From Pirellulales bacterium (GTDB lineage: Bacteria; Planctomycetota; Planctomycetia; Pirellulales; JAICIG01), in NCBI GenBank assembly GCA_035547915.1, contig DASZTS010000072.1, positions 72,023 to 136,022 on the forward strand: a stretch of DNA of 64,000 nucleotides. The letters run 5' to 3'. Both the position numbers and the translations under genes were made by a program. This document shows, piece by piece, positions 9,109-64,000 of the stretch. Under the pieces are notes generated by a model, which was not told the DNA's origin, searched no databases, and saw nothing but the letters and a program-made list of their open reading frames with translations. Each line of letters begins with the position of its first letter. The stretch's first letter is position 1.

Positions 9109-9182
9109 CAAGCGTTGGTCGGCTTGCTCCGGTCAACCCGTCTCGTATTCGATCCGCGCCGTCGCGCAAGACCGCGCGCGAT

Positions 9183-9587: not shown

Positions 9588-9686
9588 GATGCCGACCCTG
9601 CGCGTTGTATTCGTTCGTAAAGCCTGATTATAGGTTGCCGCGCCGGCGAACTGCTAGTGGCGGAAAGGGCGAGCGCCGATCGTCGT

Positions 9687-39062: not shown

Positions 39063-39143
39063 GACGGGCTCCGGACGTGTTAGGGATGATTCATGACGTT
39101 GGATTTGCCAGGGCACGGCCCTGTGCAATGAATAGAAATTCTC

Positions 39144-41204: not shown

Positions 41205-41235
41205 GGAATTCTGGATGAATCGGTAAACGAATAAA

Positions 41236-42162
41236 CTAGCCGGCCTTCGAGCGGCGGACGAGGTAATCGAGCAGGGCCTGGTCGAGCGGTTCGTCCGTGA
41301 CGAGTTCCACGCGGTCGATGGCCCGGTTGCGGCACTCCAATTCGAGTTGCTCCCGCCACTCGTTCACCGCGTGCAGGTAATCGTCGCGCACACTCTCTGC
41401 CTGCGTCATCAGCACCTCTCCCGTCTCCAGGTCGTGGAAGCGGTAGTGCCCCTCGAGCGGCAGGTACCGTTCCCAGGGATCCCAGAGGTGGAACACGATC
41501 ACTTCGTGGTTGCGGAAGCGGAGCCGCTCGATGGCCTTCATCAGCGCGTCGAGATCGTCGAACAGATCACTCAGGATGACCACGATACCCCGGTGGTTGC
41601 ATAGTTCAGCCGCCTGTTGAAACGCGCGGCCGCTCTCGGCGGTGGGGCGAGCGGGGGTGCCTTCGATGACCCGCAGTATCTCCTGCAATTGATGCGTGCG
41701 GGCCTTGGGCGGCAGGTGGGCCACCACTTCGTCGGCCAGCAACACCAACCCCACGGCGTCGTGCTGTTTGAGCGCCAGATGGGCCAGCGCGGCGGCGAGC
41801 GCGGCGCCGTATTCGAGCTTGCTGATTCCCTTATTGCGGCAGTCCATCGACCCGCTGATGTCGAGCAGCAGGTAGAGGTTCATGTTCGTTTCGGCGTCGA
41901 ACTGCTTGACGTACAGGCGGCCCTGCCGCGCGAACAGCTTCCAGTTGACGTGCCGCAGATCGTCTCCCTGCGCATACTCGCGGTGCGAGGCGAACTCGAC
42001 GCTGAAACCGACGAACGGGCTGCGGTGCAGTCCGTGCATAAACCCTTCGACGATCCCCTTCGAGCGCAGCTCCAGGTTGTCGAGCCGCGAGAAGAAGGCC
42101 GGATCGACCAATTCTCGGCCGTCAGGTCGTCGCGAGTCAGGTTCTCGTGCGGTCGTGGGCAT
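41236..42162 (-). CDS. DUF58 family protein (vWA-like)
   Basis: GLHRSPFVGFSVEFASHREYAQGDDLRHVNWKLFARQGRLYVKQFDAETNMNLYLLLDISGSMD is the canonical DUF58 core. Its ATG lies 4 nt after the upstream gene stop. Confidence 0.9.
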   Translation of the reverse strand: MPTTAREPDSRRPDGRELVDPAFFSRLDNLELRSKGIVEGFMHGLHRSPFVGFSVEFASHREYAQGDDLRHVNWKLFARQGRLYVKQFDAETNMNLYLLLDISGSMDCRNKGISKLEYGAALAAALAHLALKQHDAVGLVLLADEVVAHLPPKARTHQLQEILRVIEGTPARPTAESGRAFQQAAELCNHRGIVVILSDLFDDLDALMKAIERLRFRNHEVIVFHLWDPWERYLPLEGHYRFHDLETGEVLMTQAESVRDDYLHAVNEWREQLELECRNRAIDRVELVTDEPLDQALLDYLVRRSKAG

Positions 42163-42166
42163 GGCT

Positions 42167-43138
42167 TCAGTTTGTCTTGGCGGGCGCTGCGGATGGCTTG
42201 GAATCGACGCCGAGACCCTCGTCGTCCAATTCTTCGCGCGGCGCGTAAAAGACGGTCCAAGTCGGAAACTCGTGAGCCGGAGGCAGGCAGAACTCGGCTT
42301 CCCACACCACGGTCTCGCGATACTTGAGCGTTACACCGCAAGTGGTCATACGGCCGACGGAATAATGCCAGATTAACTTGCCGTCGGCGGTGCGGGGTTC
42401 CAGCAGGATCAACACATCGGGATTCGTGCCGCTGGTAGTGAGTCCGAAGACGGCGCCCTGGAAGTCTTTCGTCCCAGGATCGGCATACTCGAAAATCGGC
42501 GCCGGAAGCAGGCGCATTTCTTCAGTCGTGTTCGGTCCGATGTCGGTCAGAATGCGCGCCGAGAAGTCGCGCACCAACTTGCGCGCCTCAAGCTTCCGCA
42601 TCGTGCTTGTCGCCGGTACCTTCGGAGCGTCGGAAAGGGGTTGAAAAACGACACCCGGCGAAGAGGAGCGGAATTCGCGACTATCGTCCCATTGAACCGT
42701 CAGCAGATCCTCGGCAACCGAAGTAAAGAGGGTGGCCCATTGGGGGCGTCCTCGCGCCATCGCTTCAATCTTCTGGAAACCGACAGGCCGGCCACGATCG
42801 GTCCAGACCCACATGGTGGCATCGAGGAAGCGCCGCGGCTGGTCGTCGTACCGGAAGACAGGCGAATCGACGAGATCTGGCAGACGATCGCTGTTTTGAT
42901 AGCGTACCACCGTCGCCTCGGCCAGTTGCCTCATTTGGCCAAGGAGTTGTCCTCGGCGCCGCTCGCGTTGTTCGTCCGAAGTTTCCGCGGGCCGCGCTGC
43001 GTCCACGGTCGATGCGGCCATTCCCGCAGCAAAAATGCCGAGCGCGAAAACCTTTCCGATCGTCGTACTATGAAATCCGACGGCCGAAGCGCGCCGGTCC
43101 TCGCTCACGAAACGTGCTTGTGCTCGCCCCGCGTTCAT
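42167..43138 (-). CDS. Unrecognised secreted protein family, member 3 of 5 (between MoxR and DUF58)
   Basis: The ATG overlaps the MoxR stop (ATGA). Hydrophobic segment IGKVFALGIFAAGMAASTVDAA. Family motifs: SPVFRYDDQP..ATMWVWTDRGRPVGF, RKLEARKLVRDF, EMRLLPAPIFEYADP, QGAVFGLTTSGTNPDVLILLEP and IWHYSVGR..RETVVWE. Confidence 0.85.
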   Translation of the reverse strand: MNAGRAQARFVSEDRRASAVGFHSTTIGKVFALGIFAAGMAASTVDAARPAETSDEQRERRRGQLLGQMRQLAEATVVRYQNSDRLPDLVDSPVFRYDDQPRRFLDATMWVWTDRGRPVGFQKIEAMARGRPQWATLFTSVAEDLLTVQWDDSREFRSSSPGVVFQPLSDAPKVPATSTMRKLEARKLVRDFSARILTDIGPNTTEEMRLLPAPIFEYADPGTKDFQGAVFGLTTSGTNPDVLILLEPRTADGKLIWHYSVGRMTTCGVTLKYRETVVWEAEFCLPPAHEFPTWTVFYAPREELDDEGLGVDSKPSAAPAKTN

Positions 43139-44214
43139 GCCTTCTCCTCGACCGGCACGGCCTTCAACAGCCGCTCGACCAGCCCATCGGCATCGAGATT
43201 ATCGGCCCGGGCGTGGAAGTTGAGCACGAGCCGGTGCCGTAGCACGGGTGCGGCCATGGCTTGAATATCCGCGAAGTCGACATGGTACTTGCCCGACAGG
43301 ATGGCTCGCCCCTTGGCGCCCAGCACCAAGAATTGCGAGGCGCGAGGGCTAGCGCCGTACGCCAGGTATTTATGGATGGCGGCCAGTCCCGGCGAGCCCG
43401 CCGAGGCGCCAGGAGCACCGTCGGGCCGCGTGGCCGCCACCAGCCGGGCCGTGTAACGTACCACGCCGTCGGCAATGGGCACGCCCCGCACCAGCTCTTG
43501 TAGCCGCAGCACCTCCTCGGCCGCCAACACCTTGTCGGCTTGCATCGCCAGAGTGCTCGTCGTCCCCTTGATGATCTGCACCTCTTCGTCGACCGTCGGG
43601 TACTTGACCTTGAGGTTGAACATGAAGCGGTCCAACTGTGCCTCGGGGAGCGGATAGGTCCCCTCCATCTCGATCGGATTCTGTGTGGCCACCACGAAGA
43701 ACGGCGGCTTGAGCCGATAGGTCTCGCGGCCGACCGAAACCTCACCTTCTTGCATGGCTTGGAGCAGGGCCGCCTGCGTCTTAGGCGGCGTGCGGTTGAT
43801 TTCGTCGGCCAGCAGAAAGTTCGTGAACACCGGACCGGGCACGAACGAGACCCGATGCTTGCCCGTCGCCTGGTCTTCTTCCATCACGTCGGTGCCCGTG
43901 ATATCCGCGGGCATCAGGTCGGGCGTGAACTGCACGCGGCGGAACTCCATGTCGAGCGTCCGCGCCAGGGTGCGGGCCATGAGCGTCTTGCCCAAACCCG
44001 GTACGCCGTGCAGCAGCACGTGCCCGCGGCAGAGCAGGCCGATCAACAGCGAGTCGATGATCTCGTGTTGGCCGATCACGACCTTGCCCATCTCTTGCTT
44101 CACGCGATCGCGCGCTTCGCGCAGGCGGGCGATGACGGCCAGATCGTCGGCGCCGTTTTCCGACGGGGTGGCGGGTAGCTTGACCGTGCTCATAAATGCT
44201 CCGCGTTCGCTCAT
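43135..44214 (-). CDS. moxR: MoxR-family AAA+ ATPase
   Basis: Contains VIGQHEIIDSLLIGLLCRGHVLLHGVPGLGKTLMARTLARTL (Walker A), LLADEINRTPPKTQAALLQAMQE and VVATQNPIEMEGTYPLPEAQLDRF. GGAG lies 6 nt upstream of the ATG at 44214. Confidence 0.93.
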   Translation of the reverse strand: MSERGAFMSTVKLPATPSENGADDLAVIARLREARDRVKQEMGKVVIGQHEIIDSLLIGLLCRGHVLLHGVPGLGKTLMARTLARTLDMEFRRVQFTPDLMPADITGTDVMEEDQATGKHRVSFVPGPVFTNFLLADEINRTPPKTQAALLQAMQEGEVSVGRETYRLKPPFFVVATQNPIEMEGTYPLPEAQLDRFMFNLKVKYPTVDEEVQIIKGTTSTLAMQADKVLAAEEVLRLQELVRGVPIADGVVRYTARLVAATRPDGAPGASAGSPGLAAIHKYLAYGASPRASQFLVLGAKGRAILSGKYHVDFADIQAMAAPVLRHRLVLNFHARADNLDADGLVERLLKAVPVEEKA

Positions 44215-51205: not shown

Positions 51206-54200
51206 CTAAGGAAGCGGCGCTGCCGCGCCTGCGGCGCCGGCCGGGCCGGGCGCGGCATCTGCCATCGGTTTGAAGAGCGTTTCCAGTTGGGTTTCCATGG
51301 CTTTACCGCCGCCGATAAACACGCGCAGCACACGCCCGTCGGCGCCGATGACCACCGTGTAGGGAATGGCCGTTGCGCCGTAGCGGGCGGCGACCGAGCC
51401 GTCGCGGTCGAGCGCCGTCGCGACGTCGAGCCCGAGGCGCTTGAGGGCCTCTCGCGCCTCGTCGGACGACTGCCGCAGGTTGACCGTAACAAGCTTGACT
51501 TCGCTCTGCGGGAGTCGGTCAACGGTGCGGACAAGTTTGGGGAGTCCGGCGACACACGGCGCGCACCACGAAGCCCAGAAGTCGAGCACCACGCCCCGGC
51601 CCCGCTGTTGCGACAGGCGGAACTTGCTGCCGTCCAGCAGATCGAGTTCGAAATCGGGTGCGAGCTGCCCCACCAACGGAGAGGCGGCGCCCGCGTCGGC
51701 CGGCTGGCCGTTCTCCTGGAAGGCCAGCGGATCGGGCGCCGGCGTCAGCAGCCAGTCGTGGTAGGCGAGTTGCGTCGAGGCCTGGAGCGCCCGTTCGCCG
51801 AGCAGCAACGTGTTCAGGCGGTCGAGCGGCAGATTGCAATCACCGAGTACCTCGTTTACGCCGGCGATCACGAATTCGTCGATCTCCCGGACGGCGAACG
51901 TCAGTCGCGTACCGTCGCTCGTGACCGCGTAGGCACGGTTGTTCGGCGGCACACGTTTCTCGACATCTTGTTCAGCAGTACCTTGTTCAGCGGTGGCTCG
52001 GTCGGCGGTGGCTCGGTCGGCAGCCTCGCCGGGAACCTGCGGGTGTAGCCAGATGATGGCCGCGATCCGTTCACGTGGGAATTGGCGCTCGGCCTCTCCG
52101 AGCGCGAACCGGAGGGTCTCGTCCGATAGTTCGAGTAAGCGGCCGCGCAGGCAGTCGCCATTGGCGGCGCACAGCACATGCGTCGGCGGGTCGTCGCGAT
52201 TGAGTCGCGGTAACGTGAGCAGCCGCGAGATCTTCTCGCGGTCGAGCGCCACGTGATTCGGAGCCGCGCCTGCTTGCGGATTCTGAGGATGCTCTTGCAC
52301 AGGCCGGCTCCAAGCCACCCTGCTCAGATTGATCGCCTTGACGCTGCCGTGCGCGATCCGCTTCTCGGCCGATGCCGTGCGGCAGGTGACGCCGCGGTCG
52401 TCGATGTGCGTCACGTGGCACCGGAAGGTGTCGCCGGTGGCCAGGTAAATCGTATCGTGTTCGCTCGCGGGGCCGTTCCCGTGCTCGACGGTCGCATTCG
52501 GGCCCGGCCTTTCGACACCCTGCGGCTGCGGTACCGGGCGGGTGAGGGCGCGGTTGAATATCGGTTCCTTGGCGTCGGTGCCTAAGTTCCCGGCGCCGCG
52601 CGTCGAGCCGAAACGGGCCAGCGATTGGGCCGTGATGGTGGCCGAGACGTCGTCGCGCAGTGGGCTCGCGACGCCCGAGCCCGAGGGGAGCCAGCTCACG
52701 GCGTTCTGTCCCGGTTCGGCCCGACCCGGTGACAACCGGCCGTGCAGCCGGCAACCATCACAACGCAGCAGCAGCGGGCGGCTGGGAAGATCGGCCGGGG
52801 CTTCGTAAGAAAAGACCAGGTTGGCCAGGGCGACCACCGGCACACTCGGGCTGGCCAGCGGCGCCGAGTTGATCGCCCGGCTATCGATCGCCAGCCGTTC
52901 GCCGTCGATGCCGGCGAACCAACCGCTCAAGCGCGTGCCGTCGACACACGATACACGCAGGGGCGTGGTCTCCGCTTCCGCCGCGGGATTACCGAAGAAG
53001 ACTCGCGACACCTGCTCGTCGCTGCACGAGACCGGGCCCTGTTCGGTCGTGATCATAAACTCTCGTCGGTCCGCGTCGTAACCGGCGATCGCGCCACGCA
53101 CGACCGCGCCGTCGACGCGGTGCAATTCGGGTTGCGTTGCCGCCGGAGAGAGCGGACCACTTCCACTACAGATGCGTAGCCGCTCCAAGCACAAACCGCC
53201 CCGCTTGTGCTCGAGCAGCACACCGGGCAAGACGCGCGGAGCATCGACCTTCACCTGCACGGTCGCCAGCGACACGCCGGCGGGCGAGAAGACCTCGGCG
53301 CGCTGCTCCGATTGGTCGAGCACCACGCGCAGATGAACATGGTCGCGGTCGGAGCCGGCCGACAGCGTCATGACCCGCGCCACGTCAATGTCGTGTTCGG
53401 TTTCGTACACCGCGATCACGTCCTGATCGACCACTTCCAGCCGAAAACCGCCCGGCCGAGCTCCCGGAGCGTCGCCCACGCCGAGCGACAGGCGAAACAC
53501 GGGAGGGAAGAGGGACGAGACGTCGAATTCGATGAACGCCCGAGGTGGCAGTTCGATCTTGCGATAGATCGATGCTCCATCCTTATCGGTCGAAAGCTGA
53601 TTCTCTTGATCTTGCCAGCTCGCCTGGCCGGGCGACACCTGCCATTCCACGAGGCCGTTGGGGCCGAGATAGACCAGCCCGTCCGACTTGCAGCGCTCAA
53701 GGCAGCGGACGCCCGTGCATCTGACGCGCACTTCGCCGGCCAACGACGATCGAAACAGCACGTGATCGTTGCCGATCGACAGGATCTCACCGTACAACAC
53801 GTCGCCGTTCGTCAACTCCAGCCGGTAGTCGTGCTCGCGCCAGCCGGGGGCCGCCTCGGAGACCGGAAAACGCACACGCGTCACCGCGCACAGGTCGAAC
53901 GCGAACGGACGGATGAAATCGGCCGACTGCCAGCCAAACTTGTCGGCTTGATCGACTTCCACCGGCGTGCCGGCCAGCCAATCGTCCCCCTGCAAAGACA
54001 GGATGGGAACGTCCGAAGGGGGAGCCGGTTCTTCGGCGGCGGCCGGCATCACCCTCGCGCGGCCGCTAGTACCCAGATCGTTGATGACGCCGATCGACGG
54101 CTGCCCCACCCGTTGCCTTTGCGCGGTAGCAACCGTCGGTGAGGCCACCAGCACGACCAACGCGGCAAGTGCCGCAACCTGGCGTGAAGACGGCGCGCTC

Positions 54201-54211
54201 GGCCGAAACAC
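51206..54211 (-). CDS. Large secreted protein with a C-terminal TlpA/redoxin-like thioredoxin domain (WCAPC)
   Basis: Track ORF 51206..54682 has an implausible N-terminus that reads through the upstream gene and repeat C. The GTG at ~54211 gives (M)FRPSAPSSRQVAALAALVVLVASPTVATAQ (signal). The C-terminus reads LAPDFELDLLDGSKFRLSQQRGRGVVLDFWASWCAPCVAGLPKL..AIPYTVVIGADGRV. The ~800 aa N-terminal part is unrecognised. The start position is a guess. Confidence 0.7.
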   Translation of the reverse strand: MFRPSAPSSRQVAALAALVVLVASPTVATAQRQRVGQPSIGVINDLGTSGRARVMPAAAEEPAPPSDVPILSLQGDDWLAGTPVEVDQADKFGWQSADFIRPFAFDLCAVTRVRFPVSEAAPGWREHDYRLELTNGDVLYGEILSIGNDHVLFRSSLAGEVRVRCTGVRCLERCKSDGLVYLGPNGLVEWQVSPGQASWQDQENQLSTDKDGASIYRKIELPPRAFIEFDVSSLFPPVFRLSLGVGDAPGARPGGFRLEVVDQDVIAVYETEHDIDVARVMTLSAGSDRDHVHLRVVLDQSEQRAEVFSPAGVSLATVQVKVDAPRVLPGVLLEHKRGGLCLERLRICSGSGPLSPAATQPELHRVDGAVVRGAIAGYDADRREFMITTEQGPVSCSDEQVSRVFFGNPAAEAETTPLRVSCVDGTRLSGWFAGIDGERLAIDSRAINSAPLASPSVPVVALANLVFSYEAPADLPSRPLLLRCDGCRLHGRLSPGRAEPGQNAVSWLPSGSGVASPLRDDVSATITAQSLARFGSTRGAGNLGTDAKEPIFNRALTRPVPQPQGVERPGPNATVEHGNGPASEHDTIYLATGDTFRCHVTHIDDRGVTCRTASAEKRIAHGSVKAINLSRVAWSRPVQEHPQNPQAGAAPNHVALDREKISRLLTLPRLNRDDPPTHVLCAANGDCLRGRLLELSDETLRFALGEAERQFPRERIAAIIWLHPQVPGEAADRATADRATAEQGTAEQDVEKRVPPNNRAYAVTSDGTRLTFAVREIDEFVIAGVNEVLGDCNLPLDRLNTLLLGERALQASTQLAYHDWLLTPAPDPLAFQENGQPADAGAASPLVGQLAPDFELDLLDGSKFRLSQQRGRGVVLDFWASWCAPCVAGLPKLVRTVDRLPQSEVKLVTVNLRQSSDEAREALKRLGLDVATALDRDGSVAARYGATAIPYTVVIGADGRVLRVFIGGGKAMETQLETLFKPMADAAPGPAGAAGAAAPLP

Positions 54212-54229
54212 GCTCGAGCTGCTTGAAGA

Positions 54230-54324
54230 AACCGACGAAACTGGACCGAGCTCCGAAAAAATTGGGGTTTCACCGCCGATTTTTCGTCCACGGCGCTCCG
54301 ACTTCCGGGTTTTGTCAGCCGTTC
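54230..54324 (+). repeat. Intergenic ~95-bp repeat, copy C
   Basis: aaccgacgaaactggaccgagctccgaaaaaattggggtttcaccgccgatttttcgtccacggcgctccgacttccgggttttgtcagccgttc. The hairpin is kept with a G-U-compatible change (AAAAATTGG/CCGATTTTT). It fills the gap between the 54330 stop and the ~54211 start. Confidence 0.7.
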
Positions 54325-54329
54325 TCGGG

Positions 54330-55394
54330 TTAACGTTCATAAATCGGCAAAAAGCGGTAGTTGACGGCGAGTACCAGGAGCGACATCGAGGTGCCATAAG
54401 CGGGGCCGAAGGGGGATGTGAAGCTGCCGTCGGGCTGCTGGCCCGCAACCAGCCGTCGGATCTGGCCATTATTCCAACGTTCCCACGCGTCGAGATCGCC
54501 CTGGTAGAGGGCTTGGGCCTGATAATAGAAGGTGTATTCGTCGTTGTGGTTCCGGCCCTGCCCCCGCTCGTGCCTGAGGAAATCGAGGGTGGCCTTGTAT
54601 TCCGTGAGATCTTTGCGGCGGGCGACGGCAAAGACGAGCGTGGCGATCGACGACCGGGCCGCCGAGTCGCCCGGCGCACCACCGATGCCCGAATATCCGA
54701 CGCTGCCGTCGGCCCCGGTCGACTGCCGGTAATAGGCCAGCGCCCGCTCGATCGCCTGGTCGGGCACCTCGATGCCCGCGTTGCGCGCGGCGAGCAGCCC
54801 CACGAGCACTGCGCCGCTCACCGATGTGTCGGCGTCGCGCGCATTGGGGGAATACCTCCATCCGCCGAACGGATTCTGCTTCTGCGATGTCAGCGCGCAC
54901 CGAACCGCCAGCTCGAGCGCTTGACCCACGGATCGCCCGGCCGCCGGCCGGGCTGCGGCGGCGGCGGTACGGCCCGCATCCCAGAGATGATCGTCGTCGA
55001 CCGTCCCGTATGCCTCAGCGAGCGCCAACATGGCGAAGCCGTGGTGATACATATTGCCCGGTCCGATGCAGCCGTTCACCGCGTCTTGTGCCGAGATGAT
55101 GCTGCGCAGCGCCGCGCGCACGTGCGAGGCATAGGGTCCGAAATTGGGATCTTCTCCCGAGGCCAGGAGCGTCATCAGGCAGAGTCCGCTGACGCCGGGA
55201 CCGCTGTGCGCATCGGTCCCCCAGTCGCCACCCGGTCCCTGCGAGGTCGCCAAGTATTTCAAGCCGCGCTCGTAGATGGTGCGCACTTCGTGCGGCACGG
55301 CACTTCCTTGCCGCAATTCGGGCAGTTGGGCCCGCGCTGTGGCGGCCAGGGTGAGTAGCAAGAACCCGCTAAGAAGGCTACGTTTCGTCGGCAT
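54330..55394 (-). CDS. Secreted prenyltransferase/squalene-oxidase-repeat (terpenoid-cyclase-fold) protein
   Basis: ORF 54330..55448; the ATG at 55394 gives MPTKRSLLSGFLLLTLAATARAQ (signal). It contains YERGLKYLATSQGPGGDWG, GLCLMTLLASGEDP, MYHHGFAMLALAEAYG, QKQNPFGGWRY and AGQQPDGSF. Confidence 0.7.
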   Translation of the reverse strand: MPTKRSLLSGFLLLTLAATARAQLPELRQGSAVPHEVRTIYERGLKYLATSQGPGGDWGTDAHSGPGVSGLCLMTLLASGEDPNFGPYASHVRAALRSIISAQDAVNGCIGPGNMYHHGFAMLALAEAYGTVDDDHLWDAGRTAAAAARPAAGRSVGQALELAVRCALTSQKQNPFGGWRYSPNARDADTSVSGAVLVGLLAARNAGIEVPDQAIERALAYYRQSTGADGSVGYSGIGGAPGDSAARSSIATLVFAVARRKDLTEYKATLDFLRHERGQGRNHNDEYTFYYQAQALYQGDLDAWERWNNGQIRRLVAGQQPDGSFTSPFGPAYGTSMSLLVLAVNYRFLPIYER

Positions 55395-55504
55395 AGGCCG
55401 CGTGTTGCCGAAGCAGAACCTCGCTGCGCACACATACCGATTTTGCATCGTCTATCTACCCCTGAGCGATTGCCGAAAGACTCGTTCGTCGCATGGCATA
55501 ACCT

Positions 55505-57190
55505 CTAAAACATGCCGCCGCCGGCCGCTGGAACGGGAGCTTGTGGTCGCGTATCGACTTGCCGAATCTCTTCGATCAGTAGTGCCTGCCGGCTGCCGAT
55601 CGCCGGCCATTGCTCCTCATACAAATAGGGGTGCCACCACTCGTCGGGCAATGTGGCGATGCGCCGCACCGACTCGATGCGCCAGTCGCCCTCTGCGGCG
55701 TCGCCACCTTCTACCAAGCGGTTGTTCAGAGCCGTCGAAAGATCGACGCACTGTTGCGAAGTCAGCGCGGCAGCGCGCTCGAAGCCGACGACGACCGCAT
55801 CGACCAGGGACCGTCGCTGCAATTCGCGACGCTCGCGCTCGGCGATCATTAACCGTCGCTTCTGGTCGTCGCATAGTCGTCCCTGGAGGGTCTTTTGAAG
55901 ACTCGAAGTCGCAGTGCCAAAAATATCCCGCCCCGTTCGCCCGATGCCTCCGGTCGCATTCACCTTCTGCACGACAATCTTTTCACCTTCGGCCAGGTTC
56001 TGCGGCAGCGCGGCGCGTTGTTCCATCAGTTGGCCGATATCGAGTTTGCCCGCCAGCAACAACTTTTCACGTTGCGCGTCGGTAAGGCCGCAGGCGGCGT
56101 GGACATCGTCGATGCGAAGTTGCAAATGCTCCATTAAGAGCCGCCGCAGGTCTTCTATTGCCGGGCCGCGGCGCACGATCCGCCTTTCCACCCGTGCCAT
56201 CTGCTGAATCGGCGCGGCTTGGTTCGCGCCCTGGACCGCGACCGGCACCATCACCGCCTTCTGGACAAAAACCACCTCGTGGTGTCCATCCATCATCTGC
56301 CTGTAAGCGCCCGATTGACGCGCGGTCAGAGCGGCGTCCAAGATCGCGGTGGGGACCTCACGGAGATACGCTTCATCGCCCGTGAGCCAAAAGAGTTGTT
56401 CTGTCGGATCGACCGCCGGATGCGCTCCATCGTTGAGCGGCAAGGGATCGTCTATCAGCTTCTCGCCCAGGTCCCTTCGCTGATCGTCGGACAGCAACAG
56501 CACTTCGTCGACCAAGGCGACCTGGATCTGTGCACGTGCGCGCTTACGGAAGGCCTCTAGTCGCCGTTGCTCGACATCGTATTTGCGCCAAGCATCGGGC
56601 CAGGTACCTTGTACGATCTTGGCGAGCTCCCGGCGAACGGTCCTGCTGGGTGCGGCCGCGCCATCCTGACCGAAATCGTTGGGCACGGCCGCGAGCTTTC
56701 CCCCGGCGACCACCACATTAAAGCCATTGGCCACCGGCACGGCCGCCCCTCGGATGGCAACAACTCTCCGTTTTAGGCCATTGTTGGCAACTTGCCGCCG
56801 AAGCTGTACCGCGAATTCTTCGCCCAGCGCGTCGATCGCGGCGCGACCGTCCTGTTCCAACGAAGCCACCTGTTGATGGTCGAGTTCGCAGACGTTTTGC
56901 AGAAACCGAAGTTCCAGGGGCAGGCACTCGCGCAACGGGTGCGTGTACTGCTTGCCCACGTCGGCCCATTGCTCGTCCGTCAAATTGGCGTCAACTCCGA
57001 TTCGGATCGCGCCGACCACTTGTGCCCAACCTGCACCGGCCATCACCAGCCAGAGGAGACCCGCGAGGACCAGCCGATTCCTCAGCCGCGGCGCCACCTC
57101 GGCCAAGCCGCGGGTAGGACCGCGCGACGGCCACCGCATACGGACGGGCCATCGGCAGATCGTTGAAGTGCGAAGGATGGCGCTCGTCAC
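55505..57190 (-). CDS. Hypothetical helical protein with an N-terminal TM/signal
   Basis: 561-aa ORF. The GTG at 57190 overlaps the upstream stop (GTGA); an alternative ATG lies at 57139. Hydrophobic LVLAGLLWLVMAGAGWAQ. I recognise no family. Confidence 0.6.
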   Translation of the reverse strand: MTSAILRTSTICRWPVRMRWPSRGPTRGLAEVAPRLRNRLVLAGLLWLVMAGAGWAQVVGAIRIGVDANLTDEQWADVGKQYTHPLRECLPLELRFLQNVCELDHQQVASLEQDGRAAIDALGEEFAVQLRRQVANNGLKRRVVAIRGAAVPVANGFNVVVAGGKLAAVPNDFGQDGAAAPSRTVRRELAKIVQGTWPDAWRKYDVEQRRLEAFRKRARAQIQVALVDEVLLLSDDQRRDLGEKLIDDPLPLNDGAHPAVDPTEQLFWLTGDEAYLREVPTAILDAALTARQSGAYRQMMDGHHEVVFVQKAVMVPVAVQGANQAAPIQQMARVERRIVRRGPAIEDLRRLLMEHLQLRIDDVHAACGLTDAQREKLLLAGKLDIGQLMEQRAALPQNLAEGEKIVVQKVNATGGIGRTGRDIFGTATSSLQKTLQGRLCDDQKRRLMIAERERRELQRRSLVDAVVVGFERAAALTSQQCVDLSTALNNRLVEGGDAAEGDWRIESVRRIATLPDEWWHPYLYEEQWPAIGSRQALLIEEIRQVDTRPQAPVPAAGGGMF

Positions 57191-57777
57191 TGCCGTCCCT
57201 TCTCGAGCCTGTTGAAATACTCGTCCAATCCCGCTCGGAATTCTTCGGGCAGCGTGCGATCGGCCACGCCGGAAGCTTGCGGTACGTCACGCTCGTCGGG
57301 CCGCGCCTTGTCGTTGGCACCGCTGCCCAGGAGGGCCAGCGCAGGTTGCTCGGGTTCGTCGTTTGCGCTTCCCCCGCCCGGCGTGCTTCCGCCACCGCCA
57401 CCGCCCGACTTGGGATTGCACCGCTTGGCCTGCAACAACAACTCGATTATCTCCGATTCGGCAGCGATGGCGGGTGGCCCCGTGTCGGGCTGCTGGAGAA
57501 TGGCCACGACTTCGCCCATGATACGGCTCACCGTGGTCAGCAGCCGCGTCTCATAGGCAAAATTGCTGGCCGCGTCGGGCAACTCACCGACGCGCTGCAC
57601 CGTCGCATCGACGCGCTTGCGGAGCTCTTCCTGCGTCGTGGCCAGTTTCGCGGCGTCGGCCGCGTACTTTTCGGCGGCCAGCGCCGGTCGCGACTGCTCG
57701 GCCACACGCGTCTCTTCACGCAGGGCAATCTCGGCTTCCAGGATCTGCATCACTTCCAACACGACCGATGGCGGCAA
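57187..57777 (-). CDS. C-terminal portion of the second DUF4175-like protein (in frame with 57802..60483 across a UGA)
   Basis: The track ORF begins with TTG. It ends with LPEEFRAGLDEYFNRLEKGRQ, the same type of C-terminal motif as the 35511..39062 protein (PIPPQYQELVDRYYRVLA). No SD is seen before the TTG. Confidence 0.6.
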   Translation of the reverse strand: MPPSVVLEVMQILEAEIALREETRVAEQSRPALAAEKYAADAAKLATTQEELRKRVDATVQRVGELPDAASNFAYETRLLTTVSRIMGEVVAILQQPDTGPPAIAAESEIIELLLQAKRCNPKSGGGGGGSTPGGGSANDEPEQPALALLGSGANDKARPDERDVPQASGVADRTLPEEFRAGLDEYFNRLEKGRQ

Positions 57778-57804
57778 ACTGCCGGCTGATTTGCCGCCCG
57801 GTCA
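57770..57804 (-). other. In-frame UGA followed 3 nt later by a perfect 9-bp hairpin (recoding candidate or nonsense lesion)
   Basis: The minus strand reads ..GGU ACG UGA CCG GGC GGC AAA UCA GCC GGC AGU UUG CCG CCA... The stem is GGCGGCAAA / UUUGCCGCC with an 11-nt loop UCAGCCGGCAG. The downstream ORF is in the same frame, 8 codons later. Confidence 0.5.
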
Positions 57805-60483
57805 CGTACCGCCCGACGCGGGATCGACCAGATCTTCGGCCCAGCGGTCGAGCGTGTCGGACCAGAACTCGCACTGGGCGATCGAGAGGCCCGTTTCGCG
57901 CGGCAGGTCGTCGCTGACCTGTCGCAGCCGGCCCACGACTTCGACTTTTTGCATCTCGTCGAGCACGTTCTTGAACACCGTCATCCGGCGGCGCTCGTAG
58001 TAGGCCTTCATGTCGTCGACGATGGTGCCGACGTTTTCTGCCAGTTTCGCCTGACTCTCGGAAAGTTTCGGCAACAGCTCGCGGGTCTCGCCCGAGGCGC
58101 GGTGCGCCGGCAGGCCGAAGTCGCCTGTGACCTGCTCGGTCAGGTCCTTGGCCATGTGCAGCTCTCTTCGGGACGCCGCCTTGAGCCGCTTGAGGAACGT
58201 GCTCCCTTCGAGATTGGCCAGCACGCGATTCAACTCGTCGGCCACCTTGGCGAACTCGGCGAGCAGGTCTTCCTGCTCTTTGACCGCTTCGTCGACTTTG
58301 TCGGAGACCGGGCACGAGCCGCCCCTCGACTTACCGCCGGCCAGAGTCGTCACGGGTAAGGAGAGTCGCGGCGAACCACCGCTCGGCGGCGGCGAGTCGT
58401 CCGGGTTTTCATCGTTTTTGTCCTTGGGCTGCTGCGAGCTTTCCACGTCGGCGATCGACGGTACCGGCGGCTTGGGAGGCTGGCCCTTCTGCGGGTCGCC
58501 GCCCGGCTTGCTCGACGCATTGCGAACCTGGCCGACTTGCGGCCGAGGCACCTGATCCCCCGGCGACGGTTCACCCGGTGTCTTCGCCTCTGACTTAGGC
58601 GCCGACGAAGCGTCGGCCAATAGGTTAGCAACCGAGGGCATGCGGGCCGCCGAGATGTCTTTGAGGATCTGGAGCATGGCGGCCCATTTCTCCAGGTGCC
58701 CGACGCCGAATTCGGGATTGCGGGCCGCCTCGGTCACCAGCGACTCGCCATCGGAGACGAGCCGCGACAACCGGCCGCCGTTGGCCCGCTCGGCCGACGC
58801 CTGGTGCTCGATACGCTTGCGTGTCTCGGGCCGGTCAAGCTCGTCGGCCGGCAGCTCGCGCAGCTCCTTGTTCGCCTCATAGAGCTGCAACTCGCGATCG
58901 CGCACTTCGAGCGAACGGTGGTGCCAACGGTCGAGTTGCTCGGCTAGCCAGGCGGCGTGTTCGTCGGCATTGAGCACGACGAGCAGATGCGGCGGAGAAT
59001 AGACCCGCCCGCGGCCCGGCAGATAGTCTTCCACATAGACGCGCAGTTCGATCGCTTGCGGCTCGATGCCCAGCGATTTGGCGCAGAATACGCCGGCCGC
59101 TTCGAACAGCTCGCGATCGCAGCCGCCGGCCGCCAGCATGCGATCTCCTTCGGCGGGAGTCCGCCCCGGTCGATCTTCATCGGGTAGGCCACGCCATTCG
59201 ATCCCGACTCGCTGCACGCCAAAATCGTCTTGCGCCATGACCACGAAACTTAGCTGCTCGCTTTCGAGCACCACCTTCTGCCGCGGCAAATTTTGGCAGG
59301 CGACGGTGGGCGGATCGTCCTCGCGCGCTTCGATCGACAACACGAACGGCGCCAACCCCGCCAAGCCGTCGCCATCCTGCCAGCCCAACTCGAGCTCCTG
59401 CGATTCGGCGATCTCCAGCGCAGGCACGGCCAAGGTCGCTCCCTGCGGCGATACACGCTTGCCATTTACGGTGCTTTTGACCAGCTCCCGGTTGGCCGTC
59501 GCCGTCACACCCACCGTGCTGCCGGTCACTACCGACAGGGCGCCGCCGCGAACGTCTTTCTTGGTTTCGCCGGGCCGACCCAGATAGGCGGGCAACGTCA
59601 CCTGCGCCTCGACGAGTGTCAGCTCGGGGCGCAACGTCGGTTCGACGCGCACACGGTGCGCGGCGTCGCCCACGCGCAGCGTGAGCCAACCGGCCGCGAT
59701 CTGCGGCGGCACCTCGAACTCGTAGCCGTTCTCGGCCAGAGCTGCCGTCATCGAATCCTGCTCGCCATAGCGGATGCTTGCTTCCGCGGGCCGCCAACGC
59801 GACGTTTCGGCGAGTTCGACGCGGAACACGAACGGCTCGCCGTGTGGCACGACCAACCGCTCGGGCAGCGGCTCGACGGCGGCGAACGTGTAGCGCGGCG
59901 TGGCGCGCCAGGGAGCGAGCAACCGCAGCCAGGCGTTGCCCGCGGCAGCGGGCGCCACCACGGCCAACACCAGCGCGGCCGTCGCCGGCACCGCCAAGGC
60001 CCAAGCCCATTGGCGATGCCGCGGTTTCGGTACAGCATTGCTAAAATCGTGGCGAGACGCCTGCTGCGCGACCTGCGTGATGGCCGCCTCGCACAAGGCA
60101 CGAGAACGGACCTGTTCTGCCGCGTTGTCGACCAGTTCGATGATGCCCAGCAACTGATCGCCGACGTCGGGGTATTTGCGAGTCAACAAGCGGGCCAGTT
60201 GCGGGAGCTGTCGTCGCCGCCAGATCCAGCGATAGGCATAGAGCGGCACGATGCCTGCCACGAACAGCGCCGCCAGCAATACGGTCAGTCGGACGGCCGC
60301 CGGCGTATCGGCCAACCGGTCAAGTGTAAAGACAGCCAGCCAGGCGGCGAGCAAGCCGAACGCCGCCACGGCCAACGCCTCGGCCGTCTTGATCGACCAG
60401 ACCCGGCGGCGAAAGGCGAGCAATTGCAGCCGCAGACTGTCGGGCAGTTGGGGACCGTTTTGCACGACGTGAGTGATAGACAT
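57802..60483 (-). CDS. Second DUF4175-like large membrane protein, N-terminal 893 codons up to an in-frame UGA
   Basis: The ATG at 60483 gives MSITHVVQNG..WSIKTAEALAVAAFGLLAAWLAVFTL..LTVLLAALFVAGIVPLYAY (2 TM). A beta-rich middle, a Pro/Lys/Ser disordered region and helical segments follow. The overall layout matches 35511..39062. Confidence 0.75.
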   Translation of the reverse strand: MSITHVVQNGPQLPDSLRLQLLAFRRRVWSIKTAEALAVAAFGLLAAWLAVFTLDRLADTPAAVRLTVLLAALFVAGIVPLYAYRWIWRRRQLPQLARLLTRKYPDVGDQLLGIIELVDNAAEQVRSRALCEAAITQVAQQASRHDFSNAVPKPRHRQWAWALAVPATAALVLAVVAPAAAGNAWLRLLAPWRATPRYTFAAVEPLPERLVVPHGEPFVFRVELAETSRWRPAEASIRYGEQDSMTAALAENGYEFEVPPQIAAGWLTLRVGDAAHRVRVEPTLRPELTLVEAQVTLPAYLGRPGETKKDVRGGALSVVTGSTVGVTATANRELVKSTVNGKRVSPQGATLAVPALEIAESQELELGWQDGDGLAGLAPFVLSIEAREDDPPTVACQNLPRQKVVLESEQLSFVVMAQDDFGVQRVGIEWRGLPDEDRPGRTPAEGDRMLAAGGCDRELFEAAGVFCAKSLGIEPQAIELRVYVEDYLPGRGRVYSPPHLLVVLNADEHAAWLAEQLDRWHHRSLEVRDRELQLYEANKELRELPADELDRPETRKRIEHQASAERANGGRLSRLVSDGESLVTEAARNPEFGVGHLEKWAAMLQILKDISAARMPSVANLLADASSAPKSEAKTPGEPSPGDQVPRPQVGQVRNASSKPGGDPQKGQPPKPPVPSIADVESSQQPKDKNDENPDDSPPPSGGSPRLSLPVTTLAGGKSRGGSCPVSDKVDEAVKEQEDLLAEFAKVADELNRVLANLEGSTFLKRLKAASRRELHMAKDLTEQVTGDFGLPAHRASGETRELLPKLSESQAKLAENVGTIVDDMKAYYERRRMTVFKNVLDEMQKVEVVGRLRQVSDDLPRETGLSIAQCEFWSDTLDRWAEDLVDPASGGT

Positions 60484-60554: not shown

Positions 60555-62753
60555 TTACACCAGTCCCGCCACCTTTCGAAATATCCAAAACAGACTCATC
60601 AACCCGACGACCATCGAAGCCAGCACGGGACTGCTCCACAGTTGTAGACGACGTGATTCGACGGGCGGTTCCTCTTGCGCGGCGAGCGAGCGAATCGCGC
60701 CGTTGAGGTCGCCGGGCTGAACCATCTTGCCGCCGGTGACGCGAGCGATCTCTTCGAGCACTTCCGGGCGGGCTGGATGGCCGACGCGTTCCACGGCCGC
60801 GCCTTGGACGAAGAACGTACTGTCGAGCGCGGCGCCGGAGCGTTTGGCGCCGAGCGAAATCTGATGTTGGCCCGCTTCGACCGGCGTGAACTGGGCCGAA
60901 AAAAGGCCCCACTCGTCGCCTTCATGCGCGAAGCGCACCGAGTCGACCTTGCCGGAAGGCGACGTGATCTTGGCCGTCACATCGTCGTCTTCGACCGGCT
61001 CGCCGCTGGCCGTCATAACGTTGGCGTGCAACGTGAGCACGTTGCGCACGCCGGGCTGGTCTGGCTGAAAGTAGAGCCGCACGGTCTTACCCTTCGCCAT
61101 GTTCCGCTGATACGCCATCCAGCGTACCACTTGTCCCCAAAAGCGGTAGTGGTATTTATCCTCGACACCTTTCCGCCACCGCCAGGCACCGTCGGTGCCC
61201 ATGAACAACACCTTGCCGGTGCCGTAGGTGCGCGTGACCAGCAGCGGTATGCGTCCAAATTCGTTCGTGGCTGATTTGTGGACGCACAGCACTTCCGTCG
61301 CCGCCTTGGCCCGTGTGACGGCCGCATACCACTGAAAGCCGGGCAAGTCTTCCCAGATTGCCGAGTTTTCGTCTTGGGTGTCAGCCAGTTTCGTCAGCAG
61401 ACTGCGACGTCCCGCCTCGGTCAGCTCGAAGTGGTCGGCCGTCTGCGAGCCCCATCCGTTCGGTTGCACCAGATCGAGCACCACCGGATACAAGTCGCTC
61501 AACTCGGTCTCGAGCAGCGTGACCTGCCTTCCCTGCCAGCCGGGCATGAATACCAACCCGCTGGCCTGCTGGCCCACCAGCCCCTTGAGGAGCCGGCACT
61601 GTTCGGCCGTGAGTTGGCCATCCGTCGTGCCCACGTCGCCCAAGAACACGACATCGTAGGCGGCCAACTCTTCCAACCGATCGGGAAACTGCGCGATATA
61701 GTCCTTGTTACCGCCACCGACCTTGCTCAGGCCCGGATGGAACAACAAGCACGACAACTCGATGCCCGGATCGCGCGACAAGGCGTTGCGGAGGTAGCGA
61801 TATTCCCAGCGCGGATACGATTCGACGACGAGCACCCGCAACCGTTCATCGCGCACGGCGATCGGGGCCGACAGGGCGTTGTTGTCTTGCAAGACTTCAT
61901 CGCGATGCGCGGGCACTTCCAGCGACAACCGATAGTCGCCCGCCAGAGCCGGCTTCCAGTTTATCCAGTCGTTTGTGCGCCCCATCGCCGCGATGCGGAC
62001 CTCCTTGGTCAGTTTCTCGCCCGACGAGGTTTCGAGCTTGACGATGGCCACGTGGTCGCGTGGCAACCAGCTATCGATCGAAAAGGCGATGCGCACCGAT
62101 TTACCGACCACGCCGAAAGTCGGCAAATCGAGGCCCACTAGTTCCACGTCGGGCAGGCGCGCCGGGCTCCCCATCGCCACGACCTGCACGGGAATATTCT
62201 TCAGGCGCAACCGGCCGGCGGCTTCGACCGGTGGGTGGCCTTCGTTCCAATCTCCGTCACTCACTAACACGATGCCGCGCAGAGTCGAGTGGTTCTCCAA
62301 GGCCGCGACGAGTGCGGCATTGAGATCGGTGCCGTGCCCGGCGCGCGGCTCGGCGAATGATTGCTCGACGATCTCCCACTTCTGCGCGGCCGAGGGCCTG
62401 GGCAGCGCGGCGATGATCGCCGCGGCCGATTCGGCGCGCGTGCGCGGCGGTGTGCCCGGCCGGCGTCGATCGAGATCGTCGCGCGTTTGCATGCTCTGCG
62501 AGGCATCGCGGAGCACGAGCACCACCGGCTTGCGATCGGGCCGGAACTGTTCGACCCACTCCGGCTGGTTCAACAGCGCGGCGATGATGATCACGATCGC
62601 CAGCCGCACCAACTCGAGCACGCCGATCGAACGGCGGTAGCCACTGCGCCGCCAGGCGACATAGCCCAGTGCGCTCGTGGCGATCACGACCAATACCGAG
62701 AGGACCAGCGACCAGCCCGTCGGAAACACCGTCAGAAAGCGGTGGTCGGTCAT
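60555..62753 (-). CDS. Membrane vWA-like / class-I-amidotransferase-like (Bat-type) protein, second copy
   Basis: ORF 60555..62774 starts with TTG; the ATG at 62753 gives MTDHRFLTVFPTGWSLVLSVLVVIATSALGYVAW. It contains VVLVLRDASQSMQ (DxSxS), GIVLVSDGDWNEG, LRVLVVESYPRWEYRYLRNAL..YDVVFLGDVG and a C-terminal TM. Confidence 0.8.
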   Translation of the reverse strand: MTDHRFLTVFPTGWSLVLSVLVVIATSALGYVAWRRSGYRRSIGVLELVRLAIVIIIAALLNQPEWVEQFRPDRKPVVLVLRDASQSMQTRDDLDRRRPGTPPRTRAESAAAIIAALPRPSAAQKWEIVEQSFAEPRAGHGTDLNAALVAALENHSTLRGIVLVSDGDWNEGHPPVEAAGRLRLKNIPVQVVAMGSPARLPDVELVGLDLPTFGVVGKSVRIAFSIDSWLPRDHVAIVKLETSSGEKLTKEVRIAAMGRTNDWINWKPALAGDYRLSLEVPAHRDEVLQDNNALSAPIAVRDERLRVLVVESYPRWEYRYLRNALSRDPGIELSCLLFHPGLSKVGGGNKDYIAQFPDRLEELAAYDVVFLGDVGTTDGQLTAEQCRLLKGLVGQQASGLVFMPGWQGRQVTLLETELSDLYPVVLDLVQPNGWGSQTADHFELTEAGRRSLLTKLADTQDENSAIWEDLPGFQWYAAVTRAKAATEVLCVHKSATNEFGRIPLLVTRTYGTGKVLFMGTDGAWRWRKGVEDKYHYRFWGQVVRWMAYQRNMAKGKTVRLYFQPDQPGVRNVLTLHANVMTASGEPVEDDDVTAKITSPSGKVDSVRFAHEGDEWGLFSAQFTPVEAGQHQISLGAKRSGAALDSTFFVQGAAVERVGHPARPEVLEEIARVTGGKMVQPGDLNGAIRSLAAQEEPPVESRRLQLWSSPVLASMVVGLMSLFWIFRKVAGLV

Positions 62754-62788
62754 GGTTGCTGTTACCTGTCGCAAAAGCCCTTACATTC

Positions 62789-62879: not shown

Positions 62880-64000
62880 CTACCGTCCGAATGCAAACCC
62901 GCGGCTCCGCTCCCGTGCATTCTCGGCCGCGGGGCGCGGCAGACAGAGAACGGCTTCGGCGAGCAGTACGATCAGCATCGCGATCAAGCACGGCCGCCAC
63001 AGCTCTTCGACGAGCGAGCGATCGCGCGAGGCGACCTGATCGATGCGCGTGAAATCGAGACCTTCGAACAACTGGGAGACCTTCTCGTCCACGAGCATGC
63101 CGGCGGTGTCTTCTTCCTCCGGGCGGTTCACGGCCAGTAGCAAGTCGCCGTCCAGATAGGCCCCGGCCTGGAGCGCGTATTCGCTCGACAGGGCCGAGTC
63201 GCTACCGGCCAGTTTCTGCCACTTGGCCGCTCGTTCTTCACGGCCGTCGGCCGTGAAACCTGCGGCCACGAGCTGTCGTGCGTGACCCAATGCCGCGGAG
63301 CCGGCGGCGAGCGCACGTTGGATGGCCACATACAACACCACGCCCTCGTTCCCCAGATTCGAGTCTTGCGGCGCCGGCGTCGTAGCCCAGAAATAAACGC
63401 CGCCGTGGGCCATCTCGGCCCGCGCAACGATCGGATCGCCTCCCTTCAACGTGGCCAGCGGCGTCGCCTCGCCGACCAAGGAGCAGATGTTCTTGAGGTC
63501 GAGCTTGCCGACCGGCAGCGGCATGCCGCTTTGTGTGTCGGCCAGCAGACCCTCGTCTCCGCGCCAACGATCGATCACCGCGCCGTCCGGCACCGGCGAC
63601 CACGACTTCCACCGCAAGCCGAAGGCCGGCTCGTCGCTGATCTGCCGCGGCGGAAAAAAGATCACTTCGCCGCCGCGATCAACAAGCTCTGTTAGTTGTC
63701 GCGCCACCTGCCCTTCCGGCAGCGGCGCCTGCCAGAGCACGAGCGCCGCCTTGGCCCACTCCACGTCACCCGACTGCTGTAGCGAAACGACATCGGCTGT
63801 GCGCGGCTCGTTGGGATCGGGGCCGATCGACGCCATGAGTTGCAGAGGCTCGGCCACTTCGCGTTCGTCCGACACCACTACCGTGTGTGGCGACTGCGAG
63901 GCGTCGAAGGTGAAATAGAACTCGTTGTCGGCCAGGTTCGCATCGGCGGGAATCGACACGCGGCCCCAGCCGCGTAGGTGCCGGCCATCGAGCCCGATGC
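62880..64000 (-). CDS. BatA-type vWA-like membrane protein, second copy, C-terminal part (5' end outside the window)
   Basis: The track starts at the GTG at 63959, but the frame stays open to 64000 (..IGLDGRHLRGWGRVSIPADANLADNEFYF). It parallels 39144..41204 (DDLPLDNDRH region, GGEVIFFPP vs GGGLVVFCG) and has a C-terminal TM (LIAMLIVLLAEAVLCL). Confidence 0.7.
   Translation of the reverse strand, partial: IGLDGRHLRGWGRVSIPADANLADNEFYFTFDASQSPHTVVVSDEREVAEPLQLMASIGPDPNEPRTADVVSLQQSGDVEWAKAALVLWQAPLPEGQVARQLTELVDRGGEVIFFPPRQISDEPAFGLRWKSWSPVPDGAVIDRWRGDEGLLADTQSGMPLPVGKLDLKNICSLVGEATPLATLKGGDPIVARAEMAHGGVYFWATTPAPQDSNLGNEGVVLYVAIQRALAAGSAALGHARQLVAAGFTADGREERAAKWQKLAGSDSALSSEYALQAGAYLDGDLLLAVNRPEEEDTAGMLVDEKVSQLFEGLDFTRIDQVASRDRSLVEELWRPCLIAMLIVLLAEAVLCLPRPAAENARERSRGFAFGR

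Follow-up and report, generated by a model that had tools for sequence, protein, structure and literature searches.

A candidate selenoprotein gene of Planctomycetota with an in-frame UGA at the position of the only invariant cysteine of its family

In the 64,000-nucleotide stretch of Pirellulales DNA analysed here (contig DASZTS010000072.1; the window, 65% GC), two long open reading frames (ORFs) on the minus strand follow each other in the same frame. Are they two genes, a broken gene, or one gene whose internal UGA codon is read as an amino acid? The first ORF, 60483..57802, has 893 codons, starts with ATG and ends in the TGA at 57804-57802. This UGA is followed by eight sense codons (PGGKSAGS) and then by a 196-codon ORF running from TTG at 57777 to 57187. 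Translated, the minus strand has one reading frame that opens with the ATG at 60483 and closes with the TGA at 57189-57187, the TGA at 57804-57802 being its sole interruption; the junction reads ..DPASGGT-UGA-PGGKSAGSLPPS... Our results point to a single selenoprotein gene of about 1098 residues at 60483..57187, in which selenocysteine (Sec) would be inserted at the UGA with the help of SelB and of a SECIS element (selenocysteine insertion sequence). We give this reading a probability of roughly 0.85. The parts of the gene that the argument needs are the following.

57187 to 60483, minus strand: complete candidate selenoprotein gene, 1098 codons plus terminal TGA, annotated as two ORFs of 893 and 196 amino acids (aa)
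57802 to 57804, minus strand: in-frame UGA, putative Sec codon; TGA in 69 of 69 unique interrupted sequences and Cys in the other orthologs
57778 to 57801, minus strand: eight-codon linker PGGKSAGS between UGA and TTG, apparently translated as part of the protein and conserved with the Cys forms
57772 to 57784, minus strand: SECIS-like core hairpin, 5-bp stem CGGCA/UGCCG and triloop GUU, from the RNAalifold consensus of 41 unique TGA forms
57770 to 57798, minus strand: longer hairpin proposed earlier, 9 bp, GGCGGCAAA / 11-nt loop / UUUGCCGCC, starting 3 nt after the TGA and having its 3' arm in common with the core hairpin
57205 to 57252, minus strand: C-terminal motif LPEEFRAGLDEYFNRL, located 3' of the UGA and conserved throughout the family

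The locus was first described in a sequence-only reading by a model that had the sequence and a list of ORFs, and its claims were rechecked in the present analysis. The layout that it proposed, two ORFs in one frame with UGA plus eight sense codons between them, is confirmed by translation. It had also estimated the intact unit at about 1098 codons. Read-through gives 1098, in good agreement with the length of the full-length orthologs (see below). Similarly, the C-terminal motif was claimed to be common to a paralog elsewhere in the window, and indeed LPEEFRAGLDEYFNRL (57252-57205) aligns with IPPQYQELVDRYYRVL, the C-terminal end of the paralog 35511-39128, which is a single polypeptide. The columns of LPEEFRAGLDEYFNRL are invariant or nearly so in 76 Cys-form orthologs, and the motif is present in the downstream piece of the window gene as well.

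What do other genomes have at this codon? The read-through protein was used as query in the homology search, and the DNA compared comprised three contigs of close relatives, 80 metagenome loci and 80 loci of species-representative genomes. The twelve closest relatives (64-80% identity, all from Pirellulales metagenome-assembled genomes, MAGs) are proteins of 887-943 aa that all end exactly at ...WAEDLVDPASGGT, i.e. they are cut off at the identical residue (...DPASGGT). More distant orthologs (at most 62% identity), from Isosphaeraceae, Singulisphaera, Aquisphaera and other groups, have 1082-1100 aa in a single polypeptide, with Cys opposite the window UGA, for example ..DPACCGS-C-PGGKTPASLPPS.. 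and ..GGK-C-PGCKSRGSLPPS... At the DNA level a stop was found at the aligned codon in 43 of the 80 metagenome loci and in 31 of the 80 species-representative genomes. The junction thus recurs in 74 independent loci of other assemblies besides the window, which is far beyond chance. TGA forms make up about 40-55% of the orthologs retrieved. The alignment gives either Cys or TGA at this site: all orthologs without UGA have a Cys codon there, TGC or TGT, and no sense codon other than Cys was found among the orthologs retrieved. One species-representative locus (L114) stands aside as unclassified; it has a tblastn match to the query and its junction motif is unrecognisable in any frame. The QAKS subtype of the Cys forms (..ACSGTCQAKS..) has a one-residue deletion, and its Cys is shifted by one residue. 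Note that in an alignment of 76 full-length orthologs, over about 1090 residues, no Cys is invariant except the aligned one (C887 of the Cys-form ortholog P0012). Judged from this alignment, Sec would occupy the position of the only invariant Cys of the family.

The identity of the stop codon is informative as well. The internal stop is TGA in all 69 unique sequences, and at their true ends these 69 genes have mixed stops (TGA 38, TAG 16, TAA 15). After long ORFs in the same DNA we counted 263 TGA, 100 TAG and 83 TAA. Since the terminal stops of the very same genes are mixed, stop codons turn over freely in these lineages and the internal one is held as UGA.

Selection acting on the frame was estimated from 68 unique TGA forms. 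The proportions of synonymous (pS) and nonsynonymous (pN) differences are 0.62 and 0.17 upstream of the UGA, and 0.62 and 0.22 in the 60 codons downstream of it. A pS of 0.62 is near saturation of synonymous divergence, and this is so on both sides of the UGA. In the eight linker codons pN is 0.14 and pS 0.26. More specifically, the linker of the TGA forms follows the protein pattern PG[GSA]KSxGS, matching PG[CGS]KSx[GSA]S of the Cys forms. At codons +1 (Pro, for which four codons are used), +2 (Gly) and +4 (Lys) the third base varies while the amino acid is kept, with the exception of a single Pro-to-Arg change at +1. By these substitution patterns, the eight linker codons and the 196-codon tail are under in-frame purifying selection. 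Because the linker keeps its amino acids with almost exclusively third-base variation, it is probably translated through the UGA in frame, and this conservation argues against two separately initiated genes.

These data bear directly on inactivation or artefact as an explanation: a nonsense mutation of recent date (TGY to TGA), decay to a pseudogene, or an error of sequencing or assembly. Cys codons are indeed one substitution away from TGA and a single window cannot tell such cases apart. The sequence-only reading had both recent mutation and sequencing error among its possibilities. The same TGA, however, is present in 74 other independently assembled loci, the internal codon is always UGA, synonymous sites have diverged to a pS of 0.62 and purifying selection continues downstream. 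Recent nonsense mutation, pseudogene, sequencing error and assembly artefact are thereby excluded, and we regard the probability of this explanation as practically nil.

An RNA signal shortly 3' of the UGA is expected of a bacterial selenoprotein gene. The core hairpin CGGCA-GUU-UGCCG is 13 nt long and begins 17 nt after the UGA, with 22 nt between the UGA and the loop. With the U of UGA as 1, the loop has its G at +26 and its U at +27. All five pairs of the core are possible in 52 of 52 unique TGA forms as compared to 4 of 74 Cys forms. The loop is GUU in 49 of the 52 TGA forms, GUC in two and UGU in one, and the only other change in the core hairpin is a G.U wobble. The codons that encode it are almost fixed in the TGA forms: +7 to +10 are GGC (42 of 42), AGT (41 of 42), TTG (40 of 42) and CCG (42 of 42). 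Cys forms encode the same residues with mixed codons, such as AGC (24) and AGT (6) for Ser, CTG (15), TTG (7) and others for Leu, and CCG (15), CCC (9) and CCT (6) for Pro. Expressed as synonymous codon entropy, codons +5 to +10 have about 0 bits in TGA forms and 0.5-2.0 bits in Cys forms; for GGC-AGT-TTG-CCG the values are about 0 and 0.8-2.0 bits, respectively. In the codons flanking the hairpin the entropy of the TGA forms is 1-2 bits. The third base of codon +6, which pairs with G33, is always C except in one form with U, where a G.U pair results; the amino acid of this codon nevertheless varies between Ala, Arg, Ser and Cys. In two TGA forms TTG is replaced by CTG; the hairpin is intact and the putative start codon is lost.

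Bacterial SECIS elements, in the geometry used by bSECISearch, have G (usually GU) in the apical loop, a loop about 16-37 nt from the UGA and a loop size of 3-14 nt. The window has a stem-loop shortly 3' of the UGA with G-U in the apical loop, at a distance within these thresholds.

The perfect hairpin proposed as a possible SECIS in the sequence-only reading is the longer one at 57798-57770. It is present and has a folding energy of -14.6 kcal/mol on its own. The 45 nt starting from the UGA fold with -23.9 kcal/mol (z = -3.75), and none of 200 dinucleotide shuffles folds as well; the folding of the wider 91-nt stretch is unremarkable (z = -1.39). The claim of a stable hairpin stands, but not its generality: the helix is fully formed (pairs 10-32 and 11-31) in only 20 of 41 TGA forms. 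By this comparison the 9-bp helix is a lineage-specific alternative or extension in the sub-clade with Gly-Gly-Lys codons, not the conserved signal.

A separate codon preference is seen further 3'. The Glu codons +16, +22 and +24 after the UGA (window about 57756-57730) are nearly always GAA in TGA forms, with an entropy of 0.16-0.45 bits as compared to 0.75-0.98 bits in Cys forms. This might be lineage codon bias or a further RNA constraint 3' of the hairpin.

Could the conserved nucleotides around the TTG serve initiation instead? In a genuine gene fission the first polypeptide would end at the UGA, and termination-reinitiation or coupling would start the second from TTG 57777. Two ORFs are indeed what gene callers and public annotations show, the TTG is kept in nearly all TGA forms and the nucleotides just upstream of it are fixed too. 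The fixed bases, however, fall on the stem pairs and the loop, including the third base of codon +6 where the amino acid is variable, and the two forms with CTG keep the hairpin without a usable start. There is no Shine-Dalgarno-like sequence at the TTG, as the sequence-only reading had already noted. A true stop should drift between TGA, TAA and TAG like the terminal one, and the break would have to fall exactly at the only invariant Cys of the family. Moreover, the eight codons between UGA and TTG match the protein of the Cys forms, with the single Pro-to-Arg change as departure from third-base variation. The in-frame linker and the UGA-only codon speak against two genuine genes, and we consider fission, together with an initiation role of the nucleotides around the TTG, improbable.

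Sec insertion agrees with the distribution of cysteines around the site. The loop that carries the site lacks any Cys in 28 of 30 unique TGA forms. Among 49 Cys-form loops, 41 have two to four Cys (CxxC, CCxxCxxC) and eight have the aligned Cys only. Loss of helper cysteines once Sec takes over is a pattern known from other selenoprotein families. As the helper Cys are absent from most TGA-form loops, it is likely that one nucleophile is the essential feature and that the extra Cys are dispensable with Sec. In many Cys forms (e.g. L019, L028 and L054) the loop before SLPPS has the CCxxCxxC arrangement PACCGACPGCKS; from its spacing it looks like a metal-binding or multi-disulfide motif.

In a rough neighbour-joining tree of the C-terminal region TGA and Cys forms are interleaved, with about 17 parsimony changes. 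This suggests repeated Sec/Cys interconversion, the tree being too crude for counting events. Two loci (L097 and L098, also the orthologs P0012 and P0013) are Cys forms with ..AGAGK-C-PGCKS.. nested in the otherwise all-TGA Pirellulales clade nearest to the window. By their position they look like Sec-to-Cys reversions with a gained CxxC partner.

A further possibility, programmed readthrough, does without the Sec machinery: the hairpin would stimulate insertion of Trp by a near-cognate tRNA, or of Cys, at the UGA. In-frame conservation and downstream structure fit any type of recoding equally, and the DNA at hand, i.e. the window and the related loci, yielded no Sec machinery. On the other hand, the aligned residue is Cys and never Trp in every non-UGA ortholog retrieved, which is the standard signature of Sec. 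If Cys were needed, it could be had from TGC or TGT, as related lineages repeatedly do. The position of the hairpin and its G-U loop are as expected for a SelB-binding SECIS. Neighbouring Cys are lost only in UGA forms, which is sensible if the inserted residue is chemically unlike Cys. Such readthrough is in our view very improbable.

Several observations weigh against Sec insertion. ARAGORN did not find tRNA-Sec in the 64-kb window and related loci (164 sequences, about 1.5-1.6 Mb), and tblastn with E. coli SelA, SelB and SelD gave no match to selA, selB or selD in the same sequences. Nothing was found by Rfam in the window at gathering thresholds. No compensatory covariation was measurable in the core stem (RNAalifold, 41 unique TGA forms), the stem being invariant, and for many TGA forms shuffled sequence folds just as stably as the local RNA (z about 0.1-0.2). 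Finally, the conserved TTG could act as a start codon. Since the stem lacks covariation and many folds have a z-score near zero, the evidence for the hairpin is the synonymous-site constraint specific to TGA forms, not thermodynamics. Regarding the machinery, complete selA/B/C/D sets together with UGA/Cys selenoprotein candidates exist in Planctomycetes (PMC4807772). Taken together, the pairing of Cys with UGA, the UGA-only internal codon and the TGA-specific hairpin support selenocysteine, which stood first in the list of explanations of the sequence-only reading.

The mechanism would be as follows. Sec-tRNA(Sec), carried by the elongation factor SelB, would decode the UGA at 57804-57802 as selenocysteine. 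The factor would be recruited by the small hairpin within the coding mRNA, with the core CGGCA-GUU-UGCCG at 57784-57772. In the lineage of the window this core may be replaced or extended by the longer helix at 57798-57770. The ribosome would then proceed in frame via PGGKSAGSLPPS... to the true stop at 57189-57187.

Three screens for further cases were tried and rejected. Screening of single-TGA junctions for other selenoprotein genes by the GC content of third codon positions gave no discrimination in DNA of 65% GC. Two matches to the core motif of the SECIS turned up, both by chance; of these, L136 was examined and falls within an ordinary ORF that is read in a different frame. When structure was used for screening (an in-frame TGA followed by a 5-bp G[U/G]Y hairpin), all hits were artefacts out of frame.

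What kind of protein would carry this residue? The sequence-only reading had called the gene DUF4175-like, a family essentially uncharacterised in the literature. In Pfam and NCBIfam neither the target nor its two pieces nor the full-length ortholog P0016 has a significant family match. For DUF4175 (PF13779) the target stays below the gathering score, whereas the paralog 35511-39128 scores 61.7 bits (cutoff 27.3). Homology to a member is detectable: hhalign of the ortholog profile against the DUF4175 paralog of the window gives 96% probability and E 2e-9, for residues 30-489 only. Note that the ortholog P0034 is named 'DUF4175 family protein' in UniRef. The Sec/Cys-bearing C-terminal region has no detectable similarity to the paralog 35511-39128. 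In the window gene the homologous part is:

59017 to 60396, minus strand: N-terminal half, aa 30-489, hydrophobic helices and then beta-sandwich domains

The fold was taken from the Cys-form ortholog P0012, modelled with AlphaFold2 (mean predicted local distance difference test score 76.5); the model has the following parts.

Residues to about 188: N-terminal hydrophobic and helical segments
Residues 208-502: beta-sandwich array
Residues 504-629: long helices
Residues 625-718: disordered Pro-rich linker
Residues 720-1011: helical region
Residues 1013-1070: disordered Gly-rich stretch
Residues 1072-1086: terminal helix

In the C-terminal helical region, two long helices flank the loop 880-897, and this loop carries the Sec/Cys site. 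Foldseek against PDB matched only generic Ig/macroglobulin-domain arrays at residues of about 200-500, and nothing for the Sec-bearing helical region. A thioredoxin-fold redox selenoprotein with CxxC or UxxC was considered and rejected, as the site lies in a loop of a helical region, almost all TGA-form loops lack Cys, and the thioredoxin fold belongs to a separate gene nearby. From the distribution of charge around the three hydrophobic helices we infer that the region after about residue 180, including the Sec site, is extracytoplasmic. Sec is almost always a catalytic or redox-active residue. The selenol or thiol of the target may likewise be a redox-active or nucleophilic centre.

The genes around the target give some hint of its function. 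All of them are on the minus strand.

62880 to 63959, minus strand: second upstream neighbour, 359 aa, syntenic in 51 loci, no Pfam or NCBIfam hit
60555 to 62774, minus strand: upstream neighbour, 739 aa, directly upstream in 59 fetched loci, sub-threshold GATase1-like Pfam match
55505 to 57190, minus strand: downstream gene, 561 aa, GTG start, poorly conserved with a homolog in 8 loci only
54330 to 55448, minus strand: DUF6288-like neighbour, 372 aa, Pfam PF19805 with E 1.6e-6, syntenic in 56 loci
51206 to 54682, minus strand: giant redoxin neighbour, 1158 aa, C-terminal Redoxin/AhpC-TSA thioredoxin-fold domain with WCAPC, syntenic in 46 loci

The order 359-aa gene, 739-aa gene, target, variable gene(s), DUF6288-like gene and giant redoxin gene is conserved, the synteny being phylum-wide. 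Neither the two upstream neighbours nor the 561-aa downstream gene has a significant family in Pfam or NCBIfam. The terminal TGA of the target overlaps the GTG start of the 561-aa gene (GTGA, 57187-57190), and this overlap suggests translational coupling. The giant redoxin gene lies a few kb downstream of the target and usually has a DUF6288-like gene before it. In the product of 51206..54682 the redoxin domain is the sole recognisable one (Pfam Redoxin 1e-20, AhpC-TSA 1e-19; CAPC at residue 1040). All 37 redoxin active sites in the fetched loci are CxxC and none has Sec. This TlpA-like redoxin may be a candidate redox partner servicing the selenol or thiol of the target. The conserved redoxin neighbour, together with Sec/Cys as the only invariant thiol, leads us to propose a possible redox role in the envelope.

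Two observations on this neighbourhood in other genomes should be mentioned. L001, which among relatives with a long contig is the closest, has an additional gene of 290 aa (9097-9969, SecDF_P1_head hit) inserted after the 739-aa neighbour and before the target; the window has no such gene at that position. The target gene and its conserved neighbourhood were also found in MAGs labelled Deltaproteobacteria (L099), Alphaproteobacteria (L103), 'beta proteobacterium' (L145) and Candidatus Kuenenia stuttgartiensis (L158). The neighbourhood is otherwise seen here in bins labelled Planctomycetota. These MAGs are probably mislabelled or contaminated bins.

The DUF4175 paralog belongs to another group of genes in the window, a canonical MoxR-DUF58-BatA-type cluster at 35511-44214.

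43135 to 44214, minus strand: MoxR (AAA_3)
42167 to 43138, minus strand: gene of unknown kind
41236 to 42162, minus strand: DUF58/VWA
39144 to 41204, minus strand: BatA_N/VWA
35511 to 39128, minus strand: DUF4175 paralog of the target, distant and without an equivalent of the Cys/Sec loop

Public pipelines split the TGA-form gene into 'hypothetical protein' entries of about 890 and about 196 aa in many Planctomycetota genomes and metagenomes. All TGA forms with visible annotation are split in two, and the protein collection contains no full-length product for any close relative of the TGA form. Recognition of the Sec codon would correct gene models in many MAGs. Moreover, Sec at the only invariant Cys of an uncharacterised protein of about 1100 aa would give a concrete residue, and a hypothesis of thiol/selenol redox chemistry in the envelope, for a conserved operon. 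The sequence CGGCA-GUU-UGCCG is a minimal candidate SECIS that could be used for finding more selenoprotein genes in the phylum. We know of no study of SelB-SECIS recognition in Planctomycetota. A wider picture can be sketched very tentatively, and we would sooner doubt it than rely on it: an undescribed phylum-wide family in which a single Sec in an exposed, probably periplasmic loop of a giant protein anchored in the membrane replaces two to four Cys (CCxxCxxC), forming a selenium-dependent redox relay of the envelope with the giant TlpA-like redoxin next to it, and in which the 13-nt SECIS, unusually small and invariant, is the recognition motif of planctomycetal SelB.

How does the locus compare with known systems? 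The mechanism is of a known kind, and the family appears to be new and systematically mis-annotated. The mini-SECIS of E. coli fdhF has the apical sequence UGCA-GGUC-UGCA, in which +23 and +24 are the essential G and U. Like the target, fdhF has an in-frame UGA, a small hairpin in the coding sequence with apical G-U, and Cys homologs elsewhere. The apical part of the target hairpin, GGCA-GUU-UGCC, resembles that of fdhF, with the loop G and U one codon farther from the UGA (+26/+27). The protein families, however, are unrelated, the target being neither a molybdopterin nor a thioredoxin-fold enzyme. The conserved stem of the target has 5-6 bp with a triloop, a bulged U is not evident, and binding of SelB and incorporation of Sec are predictions.

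Families found through Cys/TGA homology, by the approach of Zhang and Gladyshev or by deep-Sep (PMC12013277), were recognised by the same features as used here, namely a TGA/Cys pair, conserved flanks, occurrence in several organisms and a SECIS-like structure. The nine new families that PMC12013277 lists do not include the target family, and we found no publication that describes it as a selenoprotein and no literature linking DUF4175 to selenocysteine.

Closest to the target by phylum are the Porphyra-associated planctomycete strains P1 and P2, whose selenoprotein candidates are annotated as pairs of adjacent ORFs and have a nearest homolog with Cys (PMC4807772, Table S9). For one P1 candidate, annotated 'hypothetical', a SECIS is predicted and Rhodopirellula sallentina has a homolog with Cys (PMC4807772). 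That paper gives only Integrated Microbial Genomes (IMG) identifiers for its candidates; the P1 'hypothetical' might belong to the target family. The paper differs from the present analysis in having no description of a family, its distribution or a SECIS consensus (PMC4807772).

Finally, the DUF4175 proteins of MoxR-DUF58-BatA-type clusters have, like the target, N-terminal hydrophobic helices, a long extramembrane part and the C-terminal tail ...P..[FY]...[LV]..Y[FY]..L. The target differs from them in belonging to another conserved cluster, without MoxR or DUF58.

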